Shown one piece after another: positions 7,507-38,942 of a DNA stretch of 64,000 nt. Origin of the DNA: an uncultured Candidatus Saccharibacteria bacterium (lineage in GTDB: Bacteria > Patescibacteriota > Saccharimonadia > Saccharimonadales > CAYOYH01); the NCBI GenBank assembly GCA_964579475.1, contig CAZOFP010000003.1, forward strand, positions 109 through 64,108. The letters are read 5' to 3'. The notes under the pieces are model-generated. The model was not told the origin of the DNA. It made no database searches and was given only the letters and a program-made list of their open reading frames with translations. The position numbers and the translations under genes are program-made. Within the stretch, counting starts at the first letter, position 1; each line of letters begins with the position of its first letter.

Positions 7507-8832
7507 CTACTTCTTTCGGGAATTAACTCGTTTTTCTTTAAATTCCCATTTGATTGCTGTGCCAGCGAAGCCAAATTGCTCTCGGAACTCTCTGTCGAGG
7601 TATCTTTTGTAGCTCCAGTGCAAAAACTCGGTGTGGGCGCCGAAAACCGTGAACTCTGGCGGATTAGTACCGGTTTGAGTGATGTAGTTAAGACGTGGGT
7701 GGCGGTTTTTGAGCCCAGCTGGTGGATGTTGTGATATTTTGTCTTTCAACCAGCTGTTTAGCGTTGAGGTGTTTATTTCTTTGTCTCGCTCGGTATCAAC
7801 TCCCATGACGATATCAAAAATCTTAGTTACGTTTTGGCCGGTTACCGCACTGGTGAAGATTAACGGTGTCCACGGAACGAAATTGAAAGCTTTGATTATC
7901 TTCGGGGCTAAGTCGTCGCGAGTAAATGCATCTTTGTCGATAGAATCCCACTTACTAACAACCAGCACCAGACCTTTGCCAGCGTCTTTGATCATGCCAG
8001 CAATCTTTTGGTCGAGGTGAGTTGCTGGTTCGCCTGCGTCGATGAGTAGCAAACAAACATCGGACATTTCGATAGCTTGCAGACTACGCAGAACACTAAA
8101 CTTCTCTATCCCCTGCTCGATTTTGCCTGGGCGGCGGATACCGGCGGTATCGATGAATTCAATCTCGTGCTCGTGGTAGCGGACAATGGCTTTGTTTACG
8201 TCGCGCGTTGTGCCAGCGACGTCGGCTACAATGGCCTGTTGTTTCTTGGCCAGCGAGTTGAAAAGATAGCTTTTGCCAACATTTGGCCGGCCAATCAGCG
8301 CTACACTGACTTTGTCTGATTTCTTGTGCTCTCTTTTGGGGAGTTGTTTGGTTACTATATTTAGTAAATCGTCGATTCTGCTGTTGTGTTCGGCTGAGGT
8401 GGCGATGAGCTCCTTGATACCAAGTTTTAAGAAGTGTTCTGAGCCCTGGGCATCGACCTTATCCGATTTATTAATAGCTAAAGCTACAGGCTTGCCTGTT
8501 TTCAGTGCGAGCTTGGCTACACGACGATCTTCCTCGGTTATTTGGACGTTGGATTCAACAACGACGATGATGACATCGGCTGAAGTTGCGGCTTCGCTGA
8601 TTTGTTCTTGGATGGTAGCTTCGAAATCGTCTTCGGCTTTTTTAAGCCCGGCAGTGTCAACCAGCCAGAAGTTAAATCCGTCGTGTTCGACAACTTCTGC
8701 GATAGAATCTCGAGTCGTGCCAGCTTCGCGTGCTACAACAGCTCGTCTATGCCCGACAATGCGGTTAAACAGACTGGACTTGCCGACATTAGCTCGGCCA
8801 ACGATTGCAACGATTGGTAGTTTCTTACTCAT
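7507..8832 (-). CDS. der: ribosome-associated GTPase Der/EngA
   Basis: Two G domains (GRANVGKSS and GRPNVGKSY, DTAG twice) plus a C-terminal KH-like domain. Confidence 0.93.
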   Translation of the reverse strand: MSKKLPIVAIVGRANVGKSSLFNRIVGHRRAVVAREAGTTRDSIAEVVEHDGFNFWLVDTAGLKKAEDDFEATIQEQISEAATSADVIIVVVESNVQITEEDRRVAKLALKTGKPVALAINKSDKVDAQGSEHFLKLGIKELIATSAEHNSRIDDLLNIVTKQLPKREHKKSDKVSVALIGRPNVGKSYLFNSLAKKQQAIVADVAGTTRDVNKAIVRYHEHEIEFIDTAGIRRPGKIEQGIEKFSVLRSLQAIEMSDVCLLLIDAGEPATHLDQKIAGMIKDAGKGLVLVVSKWDSIDKDAFTRDDLAPKIIKAFNFVPWTPLIFTSAVTGQNVTKIFDIVMGVDTERDKEINTSTLNSWLKDKISQHPPAGLKNRHPRLNYITQTGTNPPEFTVFGAHTEFLHWSYKRYLDREFREQFGFAGTAIKWEFKEKRVNSRKK

Positions 8833-10135: not shown

Positions 10136-11320
10136 CTAGAGAGCGATATCGTTAGGGTCCGGTGCGTTTGGGTCTGCTGGTGGTGTTTCTGAAGCTGGCT
10201 CTGGGGTGGTATCGGTCGTAGGGGCTTCTGTTTCAGGGGTCTCACTGGCTGCAGGCGCAGATTCTTCCGCGGCTGCAACCTCCAGCGCAGGACTAGCAGG
10301 CTCGTTCGTCGCTGACATGTCGGCTACAGGTGCTGGGTTTTCGCCAGCCTCACTGTTAACGAAGTCTTTAATTTGATCTTCCATTTCCTTTTTTTCCTGA
10401 GCAATAGTTTCAGAAATATCGGGCGTGTTGCCTGTTTGCGGGTCGATTGCTGCGCCTGGAGTAGTTTCTTTTTCTTTGGCTTCTTCTGCCTCGGCGAGCT
10501 TCTGGATGTTAGGAGCGTCTAAGTTATTTATCGGTTTGATTATCTTCTTCTTTTTTGAGGCGGGCTCCGGTGGTTCTTCTACTTTAGCGGTAGCTGGTGT
10601 TTCTGGCTGGACAATCTTCGGCGTAGGTTCTGGTGTCGTGGTGGGTTCAGGAGCCGGTGCTACCTTAGTAGCTGGCTCCGGTGCTTTTGGGGGTGATTCG
10701 GTAGGCTCTGGGTCAGGGGTAGGTGTTGCTGGTGCAGGATCTGGCGAGGTTGGGGTTGGGTCTGGTGCAGGAGCTGGGGTTGGGTCGGCCGCCGGTGTTG
10801 TAGGCTCTGGAGCTGGGGTTGGGTCTGGTGCAGGTTCTGCAGCTGGTTCTGGAGTTGGTTCTGGTGTAGGAGCCGGGGTTGGCGCTGGTGCTTGAGGCTC
10901 GACGGCATCAGGGTTCGTTGCGGTTGGCTCAGGTATTGGGGCGGCACCACCACCGTCCTCTAAAACTTCATGCACAACAGCTACTACATCTTCAAGTGTC
11001 ACCTGGGATTTAACGAGATATCTGTTAGCACCGAGTTTTTCGCCACGTTCGCGGTCTTCTGGCTGACTGAGTGCAGTCATCATTATGACTTTTGTATCTT
11101 TGGTTTCTGGTGTGGTGCGCAGGATGTCTAGCATGTCAAAACCGCTAATCTTTGGCATCATCACATCAGAGATGATGAGATCGGGTTTTTCTTTAACAGC
11201 GAGAGCAAGGGCTTCCTCGCCATCGGCGGCTGCAACAATCTTGTAACCTTCGGCCATTAAGCGCGCACCATAAATCTCGCGCAAGTTATTGTCATCTTCG
11301 ACTAGGAGTATCTTTGCCAT
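10136..11320 (-). CDS. response regulator, receiver domain only, with ~270-aa Pro/Thr/Ala/Glu-rich tail
   Basis: MAKILLVEDD...DLIISDVMMPK...MMTA...KS receiver pattern. The remainder is low complexity (PAPTPAPTPEPTPEP...). No HTH or enzymatic output domain visible. Confidence 0.8.
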   Translation of the reverse strand: MAKILLVEDDNNLREIYGARLMAEGYKIVAAADGEEALALAVKEKPDLIISDVMMPKISGFDMLDILRTTPETKDTKVIMMTALSQPEDRERGEKLGANRYLVKSQVTLEDVVAVVHEVLEDGGGAAPIPEPTATNPDAVEPQAPAPTPAPTPEPTPEPAAEPAPDPTPAPEPTTPAADPTPAPAPDPTPTSPDPAPATPTPDPEPTESPPKAPEPATKVAPAPEPTTTPEPTPKIVQPETPATAKVEEPPEPASKKKKIIKPINNLDAPNIQKLAEAEEAKEKETTPGAAIDPQTGNTPDISETIAQEKKEMEDQIKDFVNSEAGENPAPVADMSATNEPASPALEVAAAEESAPAASETPETEAPTTDTTPEPASETPPADPNAPDPNDIAL

Positions 11321-13516: not shown

Positions 13517-13550
13517 TCTAGCTTCTAGAATCTATCGTCTAGTATCTAAC
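13517..13550. repeat. TCTA-heptad motif (family D), copy 1
   Basis: TCTAGCT TCTAGAA TCTATCG TCTAGTA TCTAAC. Related to 18242-18275 and 63167-63193. Confidence 0.7.
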
Positions 13551-13554
13551 AAGG

Positions 13555-13633
13555 CTATATAATTAGTTATATAACTATGTAAAATAACAGAGGGAAATTA
13601 TGGGAACATGGGTGGTAACATGGTTATATAATT
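13555..13633. repeat. TTATATAA-box cluster (family C), copy 1
   Basis: TATATAATTAGTTATATAACTATG (13555-13578) is the exact reverse complement of 51095-51118. The second box CATGGTTATATAATTA (13618-13633) matches 51164-51179 with one mismatch. Confidence 0.8.
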
Positions 13634-13752
13634 ACTTCCCCACCTAGAAGCGGCCATATGTATTAGATACGTTATCTGAAGTACTGAAATTTATCGGGAT
13701 GTAATTTTCAGATAAACAAATACTTACTAAGTGAATTTGTTGAGCAGTTATC

Positions 13753-13953
13753 TTATCGGGCTCTCTTTAGGTGTCCAACTTCTTGAAGCAGCGCTTTCTG
13801 TCTCTCGTTTGCGGAATCAATAGCGTATTTAATCACCTTTTTCTGCTTTCTAGAATTTGCGTGCACAAAAAAATCAGAGAAATCGTTTTCATCAACTTTC
13901 CTCTTCGGATCTCTTGATGGAGTAACTCTAATTCGTAGGAACTTCATACTCAT
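13753..13953 (-). CDS. hypothetical small basic protein (66 aa)
   Basis: ORF overlapping the zeta-like gene end by 26 nt. No recognisable family. Confidence 0.35.
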   Translation of the reverse strand: MSMKFLRIRVTPSRDPKRKVDENDFSDFFVHANSRKQKKVIKYAIDSANERQKALLQEVGHLKRAR

Positions 13954-14644
13954 CTATCATAGCAGCAATTTCCTTGTGAGTGTAAACTTTTTTAACATGA
14001 TCTACAATATTGTCAACGTTATAGTATGGCTTAATTCCTTTACTGTCATACTCTATGTCTCTATCAATTACATTCAATTTGATTTTATTGCCGAAATGAT
14101 TTTTTACTTCTTGGACGTTTTCAATAGACTTTACATACCTGTCGATGAACACTTCTTTGTTTATATGCCTACCTTCCTTCACTTCTCTTGCGACTGTAAA
14201 CCCCCATGCAATATCTGGTCTTAGGTGTAAGAAATATATGTGTGCAGCGTAGCCATGTCGCAATACTCTGTCAACATTGTTGATAGATTTTGGAGAACTG
14301 AACGTTCCATCCAATATGAAACTAGCTTTTCTCTTCCGAATAACATCATCCAAAATTCTTTCTAAAATAATCGATATAGCTCCTTGCACCACAGAAGAGT
14401 TCCTACCATTGTAGACGGGGATATTTGGGCGTAGTTTGTCGGGATCAATAAGGATAGGTTTTTTTGAGAAGCTGGATACCACCTCCTCTGAATATTCAGT
14501 TTTTCCAGCACCTGGGCAGCCTGCCATAAAAACCGCTAGTTTTTCTTTCAGTTTTCCTTCTGAAGCATAAGCAAAGAACTCGCCTACAAGCCTTTTCTTA
14601 TTATCGCGAGCGAATTTTTCTGCCTCTTCTTTTTGCTTGCTCAT
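13928..14644 (-). CDS. zeta-toxin family P-loop kinase (orphan)
   Basis: Walker A MAGCPGAGKT, the downstream DPD..R and ILDGT pattern, and a ~240 aa size typical of zeta/PezT-like kinases. The local sequence is strongly AT-rich. Confidence 0.7.
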   Translation of the reverse strand: MSKQKEEAEKFARDNKKRLVGEFFAYASEGKLKEKLAVFMAGCPGAGKTEYSEEVVSSFSKKPILIDPDKLRPNIPVYNGRNSSVVQGAISIILERILDDVIRKRKASFILDGTFSSPKSINNVDRVLRHGYAAHIYFLHLRPDIAWGFTVAREVKEGRHINKEVFIDRYVKSIENVQEVKNHFGNKIKLNVIDRDIEYDSKGIKPYYNVDNIVDHVKKVYTHKEIAAMIDEYEVPTN

Positions 14645-14855
14645 TGTTGAATTCTACCACGTCAAACTTAACGTGTAGATTATTGATCAATTGCCTACGC
14701 GAGTTATGCGATAAATCTTCAATAAAAATATAATTCTTCGTCTAGGGATACTTTAGCTCCTTATCTTCGTACCTAGGGTTCGAAATTCTCAAAGAATCCA
14801 ATAATCAAAAAAATGCCACGAAACAAAACCACCCACAAGAAGTGGCTTGATTTAC

Positions 14856-14930
14856 TGGTGATCCCTACGGGAGTTGAACCCGTGTTTCCAGGATGAGAAC
14901 CTGGTGTCCTAACCACTAGACGAAGGGACC
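14856..14930 (-). tRNA. tRNA-Glu (anticodon CUC), CCA encoded
   Basis: Reverse complement is GGTCCCT TC GTCT AGTGGTTA GGAC A CCAGG TTCTCAT CCTGG AAAC ACGGG TTCAACT CCCGT AGGGATC A CCA. The cloverleaf folds completely. Confidence 0.92.
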
Positions 14931-15083
14931 GTGTTTGGCTTGTGAACTAATTCTATTGATAAAAGCTTGAGTTGTTAAGGTTCTCATCCTTGGGTGAGGT
15001 CACGTTCCGCGACCCCGAAACTTCGTGATTGAAAACAAGTTTTCATCGGAAGGTTTCCTTGCGAGCTGCTCCCAGCAGTTCTC

Positions 15084-15115
15084 ACCTGGTGTCCTAACCA
15101 CTAGACGAAGGGACC
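15084..15115 (-). pseudogene. exact duplicate of the tRNA-Glu 5' half (acceptor, D arm, 5' anticodon stem)
   Basis: 32 nt identical to 14899-14930. Identity stops at the anticodon loop, where TGAGAAC replaces TTCTCAT. Confidence 0.85.
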
Positions 15116-15312
15116 GAAGTCGCTTGCGCTCCAAGTATCAATTTTCAGTTTTCATTTGTCATTTTGAAGCACGAAAATACTAACATAACCCCTGTTCTTT
15201 CACAAGAGTTGCCCGCCACTTGTCTTGAATTGTGAAATGTAAAATGATAATTGATAATTCTCAGTCCTAACTGAGCTAAAAACCATAAACATGTTGTATA
15301 CTTACCTCCAAG

Positions 15313-15882
15313 ATGCCAGCCAAGAAACGAGTAAAAGCTAAAAAGTACGACCTACAAATTGCGACTATCCGTGTGGCGCGGACGGGGTTTGCCTTTGTCG
15401 GTGTGTTTTTACTGGCTACAATTATTTTTGATTCATGGAACTTGCTGACAAAAGATGCTGTTGGCTGGCGCTGGACATCAGCAATAGCGGTGGTAATAGT
15501 TACAGCCATTGTTTGGTATATGGCCAGACGTAAGGGGTCAGACAATTACTACAACACCTTGATTATGGCTTTGGTGATTTCGCAAATTTTGTTTGCTGGG
15601 TTTAATGTCTACTGGGAGAGAGGCGTCGCTAGCACGCTACCGATATTATTTGTGATTCCGATTTTAACGGCTGGTGCGATGAGAAAACGCACTTCCCTGT
15701 TGTTTGCTGCTTTGCTTTCAGCAGCTACCTATTCGACAGCTGCGGTTGTCTATTTCAATGAAAACTATGGTGAAGGCTACCGTGTGCAACTTTGGGGGCA
15801 GATATTCTTCTTTGGAAGCCTTTTCTTTGTAGTTGCCTGGTTGGCAATGGTACTGGCTGGCCTGCGCCACGACTCTAAGTAA
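15313..15882 (+). CDS. integral membrane protein (5-6 TM), unknown function
   Basis: ORF track, hydrophobic segments throughout. Confidence 0.55.
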   Translation: MPAKKRVKAKKYDLQIATIRVARTGFAFVGVFLLATIIFDSWNLLTKDAVGWRWTSAIAVVIVTAIVWYMARRKGSDNYYNTLIMALVISQILFAGFNVYWERGVASTLPILFVIPILTAGAMRKRTSLLFAALLSAATYSTAAVVYFNENYGEGYRVQLWGQIFFFGSLFFVVAWLAMVLAGLRHDSK

Positions 15883-15920: not shown

Positions 15921-16021
15921 AACCCGAAGAGCGCAAGTCTGCCTGAAGGCGGACGGATTCGTGCGTAGCACGGATGCGAGTCAAGAAGATGCTACGAGTG
16001 TTAGCTAGCGAAGATTCATTA
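15921..16021 (+). repeat. intergenic repeat family A, copy 2 (5'-truncated/diverged)
   Basis: GGCGGACGGATTCGTGCGTAGCACGGATGCGAGTCAAGAAGAT is identical to copy 1. Hairpin GTCTGCC-TGAA-GGCGGAC keeps pairing through a G-U. Confidence 0.8.
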
Positions 16022-17689
16022 TTTCGACTGAACTATTTCGACAGTTTTACCACCTATGGCTTTCGTGAAGTAACTGTCGTGTGAGATATAAACAATAGCA
16101 CCGTGATACTGCCTCAGAGCTTCGTCGAGCTCCTCAATACTAGGAAGATCTAGGTGATTCGTGGGTTCGTCGAGAATTAGTACATTCGGGTCGCCAGTAA
16201 GCATGTTTATGAGTTGGAAACGAGCCTTTTCGCCACCACTTAGCTGACTAAGAGGTTTTTGTCCATCGAAAGCAGGATTGAATAGATAATCCCCGAGTAG
16301 ACCTTTAATAAGCTGGTCAGAGATTTGAACATTCTTTTGGAGATATACTTTCTCTATGGCTTCGGCTAGCGTTAGATCGAGGTAGTCAGGCGACAGCTCT
16401 TGCTCATAGACGCCGATACGAACTGATTTGTCAGTGAGTATTTCACCAGAGATATACTTAGCCTCGGTCTGTCGATGTTCATTAACTGCAACAATTTGGC
16501 GAGCTAAGGTGGATTTACCGGCACCATTTCGCCCATGGAACTGCAGTCTGTCACCCTCGCGGAGCTGAAAGCTAACAGGAGTAAATAGTGGTGTTTCGGT
16601 GTAACTAAGCTCTGCTTTCTTGGCCTCAACTAAAACATGGCTTGAACGCGAGGATTTAGTTTTTGTGGATATACGTATGTTACGAGTTTTGTGTTCTTCA
16701 TATGAGTCAGTAATTTTAGTGCTGATGTTCTGGGTAGATTCCTTATCTATCCAAAAACTTGGTTTGTCCTGACCTTCGAGTAAAGCGAGCTCTTTACGCG
16801 ATTTTCGCTCGAGAGATTTGAATCTAGAGATTGTTCCAGGGTTACGAGATTTCTCCTTCAAACGCTGGAAGCGTGTAACATCAGCTTTCAAATTAGTAAT
16901 ACGCGACTGGACAACATTGTATTGGTTGATTTCACTAGTAATGTTGCTTGTATTCTGGCGTAAGTAATCGTCGTAGTTGCCTTTAAAAATATCTGCTTGT
17001 CCGTCACGAAGTTCGATAATTTTTTCTACATTTTTCAGAACGTCACGATCATGAGTTATTACTAATACTGCTTCTTTAGTGTTGAGCAGCCAGGAAATGA
17101 AAGATGCTTTGGCGGCATAATCCATGTGGTTTGTCGGTTCGTCAATCAAGGCGAGATGTGCATTTGCTCGTTGCACCTTCACAAGTTCAACCATTCTTTT
17201 TTGACCACCGCTAAGATTACCTAGTGGTCCGCGTAGCTTGTCGGGTTCAATTTGGTAGCGTATCAAGGATTCTTCAATCTCGCCTTCTACCTCAAAATAA
17301 CCGAGCTGACTGAACCTGTCTAGAGCGTTGCTGTATGACTGCATTTTAACGGGATTATTACCCATAGTCTCCGGATAAGTATCTAGGATGTGTTTGAGTT
17401 TTGAGAACTCCGGCAAGTCACCGACTATATACTCGATAACTGTTTTCTCGTCGTGAGCTTGATGTTCTTGTCGGCTGGCTATAACCGTAGTACCTTTGCG
17501 CACAGTTATCTCCCCGTCGTAGTCGTTGTCCTCGCCGGACACCATGCTTAAAAGTGTTGACTTACCGGTGCCATTTCTGCCAATTAGTCCGATTTTCTCG
17601 CCAGATTCAATAGAGAAAGACAATCCTTCATAAAGTTTTTTATCGCCAAAAGATTTTTCGGCTATATCGATGTTTACTATCATGGTCAA
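16019..17689 (-). CDS. ABC-F family ATPase (two NBDs, no TMD)
   Basis: Two Walker A sites (GRNGTGKST, GRNGAGKST), two LSGG signatures and a charged linker. Confidence 0.9.
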   Translation of the reverse strand: MTMIVNIDIAEKSFGDKKLYEGLSFSIESGEKIGLIGRNGTGKSTLLSMVSGEDNDYDGEITVRKGTTVIASRQEHQAHDEKTVIEYIVGDLPEFSKLKHILDTYPETMGNNPVKMQSYSNALDRFSQLGYFEVEGEIEESLIRYQIEPDKLRGPLGNLSGGQKRMVELVKVQRANAHLALIDEPTNHMDYAAKASFISWLLNTKEAVLVITHDRDVLKNVEKIIELRDGQADIFKGNYDDYLRQNTSNITSEINQYNVVQSRITNLKADVTRFQRLKEKSRNPGTISRFKSLERKSRKELALLEGQDKPSFWIDKESTQNISTKITDSYEEHKTRNIRISTKTKSSRSSHVLVEAKKAELSYTETPLFTPVSFQLREGDRLQFHGRNGAGKSTLARQIVAVNEHRQTEAKYISGEILTDKSVRIGVYEQELSPDYLDLTLAEAIEKVYLQKNVQISDQLIKGLLGDYLFNPAFDGQKPLSQLSGGEKARFQLINMLTGDPNVLILDEPTNHLDLPSIEELDEALRQYHGAIVYISHDSYFTKAIGGKTVEIVQSK

Positions 17690-20958: not shown

Positions 20959-22380
20959 TCAAAGCACTGACTTGAGGCGGCGCAGGGACTCTTCTTTTCC
21001 GAGAACGCTGAGCATGTCAAAGAGATTTGGAGAGACTTTCCTACCACTCACAGCCCATCTGACCAGATTTAAATACTGCCGCGGCTGAGCGTTTAATTTT
21101 TCCATGTCGCCACGCAAAACCTTCTCTGTTGTCTCTGATGAAAAATCGCAATCACTTAGTGCGCTAATCGCCGACTCGAGATACTTTTTTGCATTTACGA
21201 GATCTAGATTGTTGTCCACTTGTTTGAGGTTATCTTCTGTCAGTGTAAACGAAGGATTGCCTAGGAATATTTCCATTTGTTGCTTGAACTCAGTGGTAGA
21301 ACGCGACTTGGAAGCAGCAAGTGCTGCTGCGAGTGTGTTGTCGAGGTCGGGGTTTGGTTTGAGATTAACTGCACTGAGAGTAGAAGCCAGATCATTCTTA
21401 ATCAACAGTTCGAAATGCTTCCAGTTGATCCAGTTTAGCTTTGTCTCGTCGAAGTGAGCACCTTTTCGCTGGATTCGATTCAAGGAAAATTTTTCAACTA
21501 ATTCTTCGGGTGAATATATTTCATCTTCGGTGCCATCGTTCCAGCCTAGAGACGATAGGAAATTTATCATTGCGTCCGGTAGGTAGCCTTCTTCGCGGTA
21601 GTTGAGAATGTCTTTTGCTCCGTCACGCTTAGAAAGTTTCTTACCACCTTCCTTGCCGAGAATCGGTGGCATCGTTGCCAGATTTGGTAGGGGCAACTCT
21701 AGGGCTTGGTGCAGAGCGATGAACTTAGGTGTGGAGCTTATAAATTCCTCGCCGCGCATAACATGGCTAATCTTCATCAGGTAGTCGTCGATGACATGAG
21801 CGAAGTTGTAAGTCGGGTAGCCATCAACCTTGATGAGGATAAAATCATCCAGCGCTTCGGGGCCAGCGCTCAAGCTTCCTCGAACCTCGTCGTGCCAGTC
21901 TGTTCGTTTAGGGTCGACTGTCTTGAACCTGAGCGGAACTTTGCCGTACCAGTCTTCGGGTGTGTCTACGGTTTCTGGGCGGTAGTCACGGAATAGAAAT
22001 GGTTTCTTTTCGGCCTTAGCTTTTGTGCGAAATTCTTGGACTTCTTCTGGCGTGAAAGGATCAGCATAGGCTAGGTCTTTGTCGATTAGTTTTTGTGCCC
22101 ATTCTTTGTAGGTGTCTAGCCGCTCAGATTGTTTGTATGGGCCGAGTTCTCCGCCTTCGTCTGGGCCTTCCTGCCAGTCGAGCTCAAGCCATTTGAGAGA
22201 CTGAACAATGTGTTCGAACGAACCCTCAACTTCGCGAGCCTTGTCGGTATCTTCAATTCTAAGAATGAAGTCGCCGTCATGTTTCTTTGCAAAAGCCCAG
22301 GCAAATATAGCGGTGCGGGCTGCACCGACGTGCATGTAGCCTGTTGGGCTTGGGGCAAACCTGGTTCTGACTCGGCTCAT
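20959..22380 (-). CDS. gltX: glutamyl-tRNA synthetase
   Basis: RTRFAPSPTGYMHVGAART (HIGH-class motif) and KLSKR. Confidence 0.93.
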   Translation of the reverse strand: MSRVRTRFAPSPTGYMHVGAARTAIFAWAFAKKHDGDFILRIEDTDKAREVEGSFEHIVQSLKWLELDWQEGPDEGGELGPYKQSERLDTYKEWAQKLIDKDLAYADPFTPEEVQEFRTKAKAEKKPFLFRDYRPETVDTPEDWYGKVPLRFKTVDPKRTDWHDEVRGSLSAGPEALDDFILIKVDGYPTYNFAHVIDDYLMKISHVMRGEEFISSTPKFIALHQALELPLPNLATMPPILGKEGGKKLSKRDGAKDILNYREEGYLPDAMINFLSSLGWNDGTEDEIYSPEELVEKFSLNRIQRKGAHFDETKLNWINWKHFELLIKNDLASTLSAVNLKPNPDLDNTLAAALAASKSRSTTEFKQQMEIFLGNPSFTLTEDNLKQVDNNLDLVNAKKYLESAISALSDCDFSSETTEKVLRGDMEKLNAQPRQYLNLVRWAVSGRKVSPNLFDMLSVLGKEESLRRLKSVL

Positions 22381-38809: not shown

Positions 38810-38942
38810 AATGAATCCCCGCGAGTTAACACTCGCGGTATCTTCTTGACTCGCATCCGTGCTACGCACGAATCCGTCCGCCTTTAGGCGGACAATGCTT
38901 ACCCGCGAGCTTACGCTCGGGGTATGCGCAACACCTAATCAA
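38810..38942 (-). repeat. intergenic repeat family A, copy 3
   Basis: The reverse complement is near-identical to 2174-2307 over ~133 nt, with about 6 substitutions by eye. Confidence 0.85.

Follow-up and report, generated by a model that had tools for sequence, protein, structure and literature searches.

A displaced 5' half of a tRNA-Glu(CUC) gene joined to a structured element in Saccharibacteria: a possible inherited scar of an old rearrangement

Introduction

Fragments of tRNA genes (tDNA) are usually taken as the footprints of islands inserted by integrases. Islands bearing a 5' tDNA fragment account for 159 of the 3919 Islander islands, and a 5' END fragment that precedes the intact gene in direct orientation is an accepted signature of such islands (PMC4383910). 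We analyzed a locus with this signature in a 64,000-nucleotide stretch of DNA (the window) from an uncultured Candidatus Saccharibacteria bacterium (assembly GCA_964579475.1, contig CAZOFP010000003.1, positions 109–64,108 of the forward strand), in which an intact tRNA-Glu(CUC) gene is preceded by an exact copy of its own 5' half. An earlier reading of the bare sequence (the original prediction) had interpreted the locus as the footprint of site-specific recombination or inversion at the anticodon loop. As in Islander-type islands, a direct fragment of the 5' end lies upstream of an intact tRNA gene, identity runs from the tRNA 5' end to the anticodon region, the intervening sequence supplies a promoter, and presence or absence of the arrangement varies between strains. 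However, the intervening sequence measures only 142–300 nt, no integrase was found in the open reading frames (ORFs) scanned, identity stops short of the anticodon loop, the joint is a 3–4 nt microhomology with an unrelated structured element, and the rebuilt gene of one relative (L040) is not a hybrid of a fragment and a native 3' part. The locus thus displays the signature of an island in the absence of both an island and a detectable integrase.

We consider it about as probable as not (roughly 50%) that the locus is a scar inherited from an old and complex rearrangement that befell a single tRNA-Glu(CUC) gene, carrying a selected structured element (element E), and is not a site of active recombination or inversion. 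Rearrangements of a related kind are the fold-back or duplication-inversion-duplication events that result from template switching during replication, and the homology-facilitated illegitimate recombination of competent bacteria. With fold-back and template-switch rearrangements the present locus shares a direct duplication flanking a short inverted copy, a joint at microhomology and non-local sequence (element E) at the breakpoint, whereas the inverted part of certain homology is only 13 nt long and the structure as a whole would later have been reshaped by selection and insertions. If this interpretation holds, routes other than island integration can create and maintain a 5' tDNA fragment, which calls for caution when site-specific recombination is deduced from repeat anatomy alone.

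Materials and methods

Loci and contigs of relatives that were set beside the window carry L-numbers (L007, L031, L040, L043 and so forth). tRNA genes were called with ARAGORN and Rfam, the latter being run at the gathering threshold and at an E-value of ≤ 10. The gene of a membrane protein (15313–15882), divergent from the tRNA gene, served as the anchor for an exact-protein look-up and a homologue search. Exact matches of the membrane protein provided two near-identical contigs, VAPM010124749.1 and Logan SRR6439372 (L032), while its homologues led to contigs of ten related lineages, in which the tRNA gene is divergently syntenic with the membrane-protein gene. A route through the ABC-F gene in GTDB genomes yielded 25 Saccharibacteria loci, none of which carried the tRNA or its neighbors; matches of the ABC-F gene came from metagenome-assembled genomes of Saccharibacteria/Saccharimonadales only, at identities of ≤ 62%. 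Covariance models of element E were run over 421 kb, made up of the window and 36 loci rather than of whole genomes.

Results

A displaced 5' half precedes the intact tRNA gene

ARAGORN and Rfam both call an intact tRNA-Glu(CUC) gene with encoded CCA at 14856–14930 of the minus strand, as originally proposed. The reported upstream copy of its 5' half is also real and exact, but it comprises 33 nt instead of 32. A repeat search delineated an exact direct repeat corresponding to tRNA positions −1 to 32, one copy of which lies inside the intact gene (R2; 14899–14931, minus) and the other upstream as a displaced 5' fragment without a 3' half (R1; 15084–15116, minus), with a spacer of 152 nt between them (S; 14932–15083). 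The observation that identity ends at the anticodon loop held up as well, since it stops after U32, immediately before the 7-nt loop, where R1 continues with GAGAACT and the intact gene with TCTCATC. Neither ARAGORN nor Rfam, even at an E-value of ≤ 10, called a tRNA at R1, and the half copy would by itself be incapable of making one.

Both copies are preceded by promoter-like sequences on the minus strand. Upstream of R1, a block with the elements TTGTGA-17-TAGTAT (15177–15205) matches the consensus at 8 of 12 positions, which is under the threshold of the scanner; it is contained in the motif ACAGGGGTTATGxTAGTAT that is conserved upstream of the tRNA in all relatives and reads as the native promoter. 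A leader (15117–15176) connects this block to the half copy. Within S, a second promoter, TTAACA-17-TAGAAT (14950–14978; 10 of 12 matches), ends 19 nt before the 5' end of the intact tRNA. The promoter/terminator scan also located a terminator-like hairpin behind the tRNA (14826–14848, minus).

Several conventional explanations of this anatomy were considered and rejected. A tandem duplication of promoter plus half gene does not apply, as S is not homologous to the region upstream of R1. For a group I intron in the anticodon loop there was no match to an intron model, and the 152-nt spacer is followed by a whole tRNA, not by a 3' half. A split or permuted tRNA is at odds with a half that stops before the anticodon, and no second copy of the tRNA 3' end exists in the window at ≤ 3 mismatches; likewise, a native 3' half displaced beyond the neighboring zeta-toxin islet is absent from the window. 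Judged by its sequence and position, R1 is a genuine 5' piece of a tRNA gene, displaced, and situated at the ancestral promoter where relatives hold the whole gene.

Relatives reveal the ancestral state and share the rearranged architecture

Alignment with related genomes, which had been suggested as a check, uncovered the unrearranged state. In L035, L036, L037, L039 and L041, a single tRNA gene stands directly behind the conserved promoter block, and in L037 the 60-nt leader that the window retains in front of R1 abuts an intact tRNA. We therefore regard one tRNA gene at the native promoter as the ancestral state. At the syntenic position of L044 (2842–2916) there is a tRNA-Glu(UUC) gene that equals the CUC gene except for a C34-to-T change and one base of the variable loop, so that the anticodon has switched at a single locus.

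The rearranged architecture, by contrast with these relatives, recurs in L043 and L040, whose neighboring gene is 88% and 79% identical, respectively, to that of the window at the amino acid level. Both contain, in this order, the native promoter, the tRNA 5' half, the junction CCAGGT/GAG, a homologous spacer and an intact tRNA-Glu(CUC) gene, with spacers of about 300 nt in L043 and about 142 nt in L040. Against L043, the spacer contains blocks of 81–100% identity beside neutral stretches of about 45%. Relatives thus possess the arrangement as a conserved element, an outcome that the original prediction had itself named as its refutation. The half copies have aged differently. In L040, half and intact tRNA differ at 3 of 32 positions, and the intact tRNA possesses a different acceptor stem (GGTCTCA/TGAGATC) and a different T arm. 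In L043, positions 1–16 of the half are decayed (about 45% identical) while positions 17–32 are intact, and a 16-nt palindrome, TCCGCCAGCTGGCGGA, is inserted in its D-loop. The divergence in L040 and the decay in L043 indicate that the half copy is an old pseudogene fragment and not a recent or artefactual duplication.

An assembly error at a mis-joined repeat, combined with loop-like motifs that arose at random, might in principle produce such a picture, and two contigs could be quoted in its favor. The first, VAPM010124749.1 (L031/L034), is 99.56% identical to the window across the upstream region, the half copy and the first 69 nt of S, and then ends inside the spacer; it was the sole match when a 25-mer from the spacer was compared with metagenomes. 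The second, L032, lacks the block altogether. Yet VAPM010124749.1 is an independent assembly with the same junction, and the orthologous architecture, including a homologous spacer, is found in two other species-level lineages, L040 and L043, which refutes this explanation. Moreover, the exact 33-nt repeat and a 13-nt inverted repeat described below are far beyond chance expectation. An artefact or coincidence can hence be practically dismissed.

L032 is 100% identical to the window over 3.4 kb and jumps from 14931 to 15084, so that S and one copy of the repeat (185 bp) are missing. It retains the T-loop sequence TTCAACT, whose A57 is also present in the tRNA of the window and of L043, while spacer-less relatives have TTCGACT. 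Because this spacer-linked allele was kept, we interpret L032 as a secondary loss of S between the 33-nt repeats, through recombination or slippage, or as a collapse by the assembler; that it represents the unrearranged ancestor is improbable. Given the way in which such assemblers work, passage of a k=31 de Bruijn contig through a 33-nt repeat points to S being absent from, or rare in, the SRR6439372 sample. The 33-nt repeats would permit the deletion, and the 185-bp block was probably lost in L032 in this way, although a precise empty site, a deletion between the repeats and an assembler collapse would all look alike in this contig. Presence or absence of the block between otherwise identical sequences could serve as a simple marker of repeat-mediated deletion in natural populations.

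The half tRNA is joined to a structured module that also occurs without a tRNA

The sequence that follows the tRNA half belongs to element E, a module of about 95 nt (14993–15089, minus) defined by alignment of four full copies and by covariance models. The half-tRNA/E junction, CCAGGT/GAG, conforms to the pattern GGACACCAGGTGAG. When aligned across copies, the first 27 nt of S consist of GAG, an 8-bp stem with its 3-nt loop and returning strand, and GCAAGG, and compensatory changes affect four of the eight pairs of this first hairpin (P1; 15063–15083, minus), with GCAAGG forming the linker behind it. From the four full copies, E is predicted to fold as a three-way junction of P0, P1 and P2. 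The 5' strand of P0 (GUGA/UCGC) overlaps the end of the tRNA half; the long hairpin P2 has 6+6 bp and a CUUG loop, whose 16-nt tip, TGAAAACTTGTTTTCA, lies at 15030–15045 (minus). A further hairpin, hp3 (14996–15016, minus), competes with P0 for the UCGC strand, which can pair either with the 5' GUGA (P0) or with a downstream GUGA (hp3) in a mutually exclusive manner. The structure comprises 25 pairs, with 96% of cells paired and 9 of the 25 pairs changed on both sides; slid controls reached at most 54% paired cells and at most 2 pairs changed on both sides, and none of 500 shuffles attained the covariation score of E.

A covariance model of the E hairpin matched only in the window, L031, L040, L043 (twice) and L007 (8246–8290), and a larger model, while covering 8185–8290 at the L007 site, detected no additional copy. 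E is thus a low-copy, sporadically distributed family; the presence of multiple copies per genome was not borne out, as the 64-kb window contains a single copy and most of the 421 kb is devoid of any. The L007 copy has no tRNA beside it and is bordered by the terminator of a gene on one side and by the stop codon of an RNase J-like gene on the other; it carries on with the 16-nt hairpin TGAAAACTTGTTTTCA, unchanged, and with a third hairpin that is homologous as well. E is absent from the RNase J loci of L023 and L021, and the intergenic regions of these two loci and of L007 are too diverged for an empty-site alignment. L043 contains, nested in E after P2 (about 1199–1243), another E-like unit that is diverged and 79 nt long, with CGGG on both sides relative to the window. 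Related copies at unrelated sites (L007) and an insertion difference (the extra unit of L043) are therefore both seen. Taken at the level of sequence, E is an independent module found in and out of tRNA context, and the nested unit of L043 implies that the family has been mobile or duplicative.

Where the joint lies can be read from the copies outside the tRNA. E begins with GGTGA in every context (gAGGTGAA in L007, cGGGTGAG in the second unit of L043), so that the joint between tRNA and E amounts to a microhomology of 3–4 nt, (A)GGT, at tRNA positions (29)30–32. Past this point the copies diverge, reading GAGAAC in the window and GAAAAA, GAGGGA or GAGAAT elsewhere. The original prediction had recognized in the TGAGAAC of the breakpoint an inverted copy of the anticodon loop. 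This stretch belongs instead to the 5' end of E, which is found without a tRNA in L007, and as other copies read TGAGGGA, TGAGAAT or TGAAAAA, its likeness to the complement of the loop is coincidental. Of the three loop copies that had been counted, two are indeed derived from the loop, while the one at the junction is E sequence.

In its dimensions and habits, E resembles the BOX elements of Streptococcus pneumoniae, REP/BIME sequences, miniature inverted-repeat transposable elements (MITEs) and the Rickettsia palindromic elements. Common to them are a length of about 75–100 nt, a build of hairpin modules in variable unit number (two in L043), unrelated intergenic contexts, complementary ends (GGTGAG/CTCACC) and the capacity to sit inside an RNA gene. 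E differs from them in its very low copy number, with no further copies in the rest of the 64-kb window or in about 350 kb from some 35 relatives, in showing no clear terminal inverted repeats or target duplication, and in that orthologous copies are under purifying selection in situ, with compensatory changes. At the ends of E there is a complementarity of 6–7 bp, GGTGAG/CTCAYC, and CGGG surrounds the second unit of L043; neither feature is consistent in all copies.

Rfam returned no family other than tRNA for the window, L007, L043 and L040, at the gathering threshold and at an E-value of ≤ 10. A signal recognition particle (SRP) RNA in L007, prompted by the motif GGAAGGAGAGCAGCC, was rejected for want of an Rfam match. 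A global fold in which the spacer pairs with the 5' acceptor strand of the half is confined to the window and does not recur in L043 or L040. E is a candidate for a new structured RNA or DNA element in Saccharimonadales, with good covariation and block-wise selection.

An antisense anticodon arm and a putative short sense remnant lie behind E

The mini-hairpin on the opposite strand that had been noted in the spacer proved to be a perfect 13-nt antisense copy of anticodon-arm positions 29–41, AGGATGAGAACCT, identified by repeat search at 14978–14990 (minus). Together with 14890–14902 of the intact gene it forms a perfect inverted repeat, AGGATGAGAACCT / AGGTTCTCATCCT, and at ≤ 1 mismatch these are the only two sites in 64 kb, with 0.07 expected. 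As RNA, the antisense arm is predicted to form a mini-hairpin, AAGG-AUGAGAA-CCUU, the 7-nt loop of which is the exact complement of the anticodon loop. The arm is identical in L043 and absent from L040.

Immediately before the arm, CTCACCC (14992–14998, minus) may be equated, by its sequence, with tRNA positions 34–40. Its counterpart is CTCATCC in L043 and L040; it follows E in all three lineages and is complementary to the GGTGAG of the half-tRNA/E junction. In the window and L043, CTCAYCC is followed after 1–3 nt by GGATGAGAACCT, the reverse complement of positions 40–29, such that the two make up an inverted repeat centered near tRNA position 41. We infer that CTCAYCC and the antisense arm represent a fold-back (inverted-duplication) junction inside the old gene, with E placed in the left arm.

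Site-specific recombination and inversion are less compatible with the junctions

The locus could also represent a miniature or decayed integrative element, whose tyrosine recombinase, with the 5' part of the tRNA in its attP, inserted it at the anticodon region. The upstream half would then be attL, and the right part of the spacer with the tRNA attR; only the ends would remain, or a non-autonomous mini-element would be moved by an integrase encoded elsewhere. Such an origin would account for the accepted configuration of a 5' fragment upstream of an intact gene in the same orientation (PMC4383910), and for identity that begins at the tRNA 5' end (−1/+1), as expected if the mature part of the tRNA alone was rebuilt. 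It would also be in keeping with a spacer that brings its own promoter, with the presence or absence of the block between otherwise identical sequences and with a tRNA locus that attracts islets, as in L035, where a copy of the tRNA 3' end precedes a methyltransferase islet (see below).

The details of the junctions nevertheless argue against it. The interval is 152 nt long (and about 142 and 300 nt in L040 and L043), not in the kilobase range, and integrase, invertase and transposase domains were found neither in the islet ORFs of the window, L040, L043 and L037 nor in ten further ORFs of the window. As identity stops at U32, before the loop, the anticodon loop, the usual 7-nt crossover segment, lies outside the identity block and cannot be the shared crossover segment. 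The sequence at the joint belongs to E, which occurs without a tRNA too, and the microhomology there is more in line with illegitimate joining than with site-specific recombination. The intact gene of L040 has an acceptor 3' strand that agrees with the 5' strand of this gene rather than with the upstream half, whereas a crossover inside the repeat would leave a different pattern. Covariation of the hairpins, furthermore, would be unexpected for the arm sites of an integrase. Nor did the spacer show a mobile origin: there was no IMG/VR match for the repeat, hp3 or the junction among viral contigs, phages contained only tRNA-Glu fragments, and plasmids yielded nothing. We therefore regard an integrative element as unlikely, although it retains some weight because an upstream 5' tDNA fragment is a recognized, if rare, mark of islands; these comparisons yielded no evidence for the originally proposed recombination at the anticodon loop.

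The perfect 13-bp inverted repeats, which lie 75 bp apart and are conserved in L043, raise the separate question of an active inversion switch that would flip the 75-bp segment between them, containing the second promoter and the tRNA 5' half, and so turn tRNA-Glu(CUC) on or off. An opposite orientation of a promoter-tRNA unit does exist in L045 (60–134), where the promoter and tRNA-Glu(CUC) are inverted relative to the membrane-protein gene, with a HAD-hydrolase gene between them. However, the segment has one and the same orientation in the window, L031, L043 and L040, which represent three lineages, the ORFs scanned included no gene for an invertase or recombinase, and L040 lacks one of the repeats. 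By inspection of the sequence, flipping would do no more than destroy the tRNA, since no alternative functional gene would arise. A switch of this kind is highly improbable.

Block-wise conservation points to constraint on the half tRNA and E

Comparison of the window with L043 separates the locus into two classes of sequence. Identity is 0.45 in the leader, in positions 1–16 of the half and between the hexamers of the second promoter, and 0.42 in the 3' flank of the tRNA. It amounts to 16/16 at positions 17–32 of the half tRNA, 0.81 in E and 37/39 (0.95) in a 38-nt block (14973–15010, minus) that combines the 3' strand of hp3, CTCACCC, the antisense arm and the −35 box. The intact tRNA is identical at 75 of 75 positions and the −10 hexamer at 6 of 6; indeed, both hexamers of the second promoter and their 17-nt spacing are kept in L043, although the sequence between them is only about 45% identical. 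Since saturation has been reached in the neutral parts, both E and the 38-nt block must be constrained in place. The native promoter block, too, is retained in all three spacer-bearing lineages, although it no longer abuts a whole tRNA, which suggests continued transcription of the half tRNA and E.

These observations bring into view a selected regulatory leader or small RNA (sRNA), in which the half remnant, E with its alternative P0/hp3 folds and the anticodon-complementary hairpin would tune transcription or processing of the downstream tRNA. RNA made from the native promoter would bind or sense tRNA-Glu(CUC), or its precursor in cis. Purifying selection on half positions 17–32, E and the 38-nt block beside saturated neutral stretches, the compensatory changes in E, the alternative pairings of UCGC with 5' or 3' GUGA and the conservation of the native promoter block where no tRNA abuts all fit such a role. 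So does the predicted mini-hairpin with AUGAGAA in its 7-nt loop; in a long read-through precursor, a 13-bp pairing between leader and anticodon arm is predicted with z = −3.46. On the other hand, no Rfam family, T-box or other, matches at an E-value of ≤ 10, L040 does without hp3 and the antisense arm, and in L043 the arm can alternatively pair with the adjacent CUCAUCC. In L007, E has neither a tRNA nor a downstream gene on that strand, the near-identical strain represented by L032 apparently manages without the block, and none of the hairpins is followed by a U-tract. We consider a regulatory leader or sRNA rather unlikely as the principal account of the locus.

Closest among known leaders are the T-box and other tRNA-binding leaders, which likewise combine a hairpin loop complementary to a specific anticodon loop with mutually exclusive helices. 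Here, in contrast, there is no Stem I, T-box sequence, terminator or Rfam match, the sequence lies upstream of a tRNA gene instead of an aminoacyl-tRNA synthetase or transporter gene, and the complementarity extends over the whole 7-nt loop and stem and is not limited to a codon triplet. A T-box riboswitch as such was rejected, as no match was obtained at an E-value of ≤ 10 in the window, L043, L040 or L007. In a more specific and decidedly doubtful version of the model, half tRNA, E and anticodon-complementary hairpin would constitute an undescribed functional RNA from the ancestral promoter, which would sense either tRNA-Glu(CUC) or its own precursor through pairing of loop with loop (7 nt) or of the arms (13 bp), with P0/hp3 adjusting the production or maturation of the tRNA. 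E and the neighboring anticodon-complementary hairpin might, if expressed, exemplify a rare cis-encoded control over a tRNA gene, in an ultrasmall bacterium with natural competence; and if the leader interpretation is true, the tRNA gene would be controlled by a tRNA-sensing RNA built from its own fragment.

A possible course of events

For an old rearrangement scar, we envisage the following sequence. The ancestral gene would have been truncated with a short inverted duplication (fold-back), leaving behind the sense remnant and positions 41–29 in inverted orientation. A complete tRNA copy with a new sigma-70-type promoter would have been acquired or duplicated and would now be the working copy, and E would have been fused to, or inserted into, the old gene at the GGT microhomology. 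The ancestral gene would thus have kept its conserved promoter and would now stop at U32, joined through GGT to E. The scar would then have been inherited by at least three lineages, would have undergone further changes in two of them (L043 and L040) and would have disappeared again from some strains, the 33-nt repeats permitting loss of the 185-bp block by recombination or slippage. At present, the intact tRNA would be transcribed from the second promoter, possibly by read-through as well, and the native promoter would give rise to a leader or non-coding RNA that contains the half tRNA and E. Natural competence has been shown for Saccharibacteria (PMC10633639), which makes recombination with imported DNA plausible.

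Several points weigh against this reconstruction. The order of events (truncation with inverted duplication, then insertion of E) is deduced and lies beyond verification, and a donor locus in which E precedes a whole tRNA was not found. The strongly different intact tRNA of L040 would need a separate replacement event. The sense remnant is just 7 nt long, 6 of which match in the window, and could persist merely through pairing with GGTGAG; beyond the antisense arm, the next 13 nt match an inverted D arm weakly, at 8 of 13 positions with a 7-nt gap allowed. The structure of E rests on four or five sequences and was predicted from the same alignment, and L032 can be explained by assembler collapse instead of a real variant. 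Finally, the conservation of E, the 38-nt block and half positions 17–32 implies a present function beyond that of a mere scar.

Flanking islets and neighboring genes

The original prediction had placed the start of a zeta-toxin islet right at the tRNA 3' end. Instead, the terminator and a flank of about 95 nt shared with relatives come first, the flank at 14761–14795, past the terminator hairpin, being common to the window and the spacer-less L035. The zeta-toxin cassette (about 13640–14760) sits between this native flank and a conserved palindromic block, and contains on the minus strand the ORF of a zeta toxin (PF06414; 13928–14644) and a small ORF (13753–13953) of 66 aa, which overlaps the former and had no Pfam match. 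The palindromic block, a non-coding sequence of about 90 nt (13548–13638) with the inverted repeats TTATATAAC / GTTATATAA, is 88% identical to its counterpart in L043. Its normal place is shortly behind the tRNA, after about 17 nt in L043 and about 150 nt in L036, whereas in the window the zeta cassette has displaced it by 1.2 kb; the block may represent an operator, a promoter or the boundary of an islet.

Downstream flanks vary among relatives, with the zeta-toxin cassette in the window, a C5-methyltransferase islet in L035 and unrelated ORFs in L040 and L043. About 130 nt past the tRNA of L035 (at about 341–363) there is a 19-nt copy of the tRNA 3' end, CTCCTGTAGGGATCACCAG, with one mismatch, which has the form of a classical 3' tDNA fragment; beyond it, an AT-rich stretch leads to an ORF resembling DNA cytosine methyltransferases. 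From the comparison of these sequences, the tRNA locus is clearly a hotspot of rearrangements and islets. On the strand opposite to that of the tRNA (plus, 14705–14800), TTCTTCGTCTAGGGATAC resembles the D arm of tRNA-Glu and GGGTTCGAAATTCTC a T arm; homologous stretches are present in L035 and L036, ARAGORN and Rfam made no call, and the fragments may have remained from an inverted tRNA that decayed.

The genes around the locus encode, besides the zeta toxin, RsuA-, Maf-, kinase-, regulator-, ABC-F-, DUF3048- and GltX-like proteins. An ABC-F ATPase gene (16019–17689) between the membrane-protein gene and a response-regulator gene is restricted to the window lineage and L035; in the other relatives compared (L036, L037, L039), the membrane-protein gene leads straight to the regulator, kinase, DUF3048 and GltX genes. 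Judged by gene order in the relatives, the glutamyl-tRNA synthetase gene (20959–22380) is kept within a few kilobases of the tRNA-Glu gene. In L037 only, an ORF of 199 aa without a Pfam match (164–763) is found between the membrane-protein gene and the tRNA promoter. On the minus strand at 10136–11320, a response-regulator receiver domain is fused to a tail of about 270 aa that is extremely rich in Pro, Thr, Glu and Ala, with PTPEPTPEP repeats, and here the GC content climbs to about 0.6.

The window also harbors an intergenic, hairpin-rich repeat family of about 90 nt, in three copies of 87–90% identity at 2223–2313, 15937–16027 and 38810–38893 (GTCCGCCTAAAGGCGGAC, CGTGCGTAGCACG and CCGCGAGTGTTAACTCGCGG). 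A kinship of E with this family was considered and rejected, as none was found.

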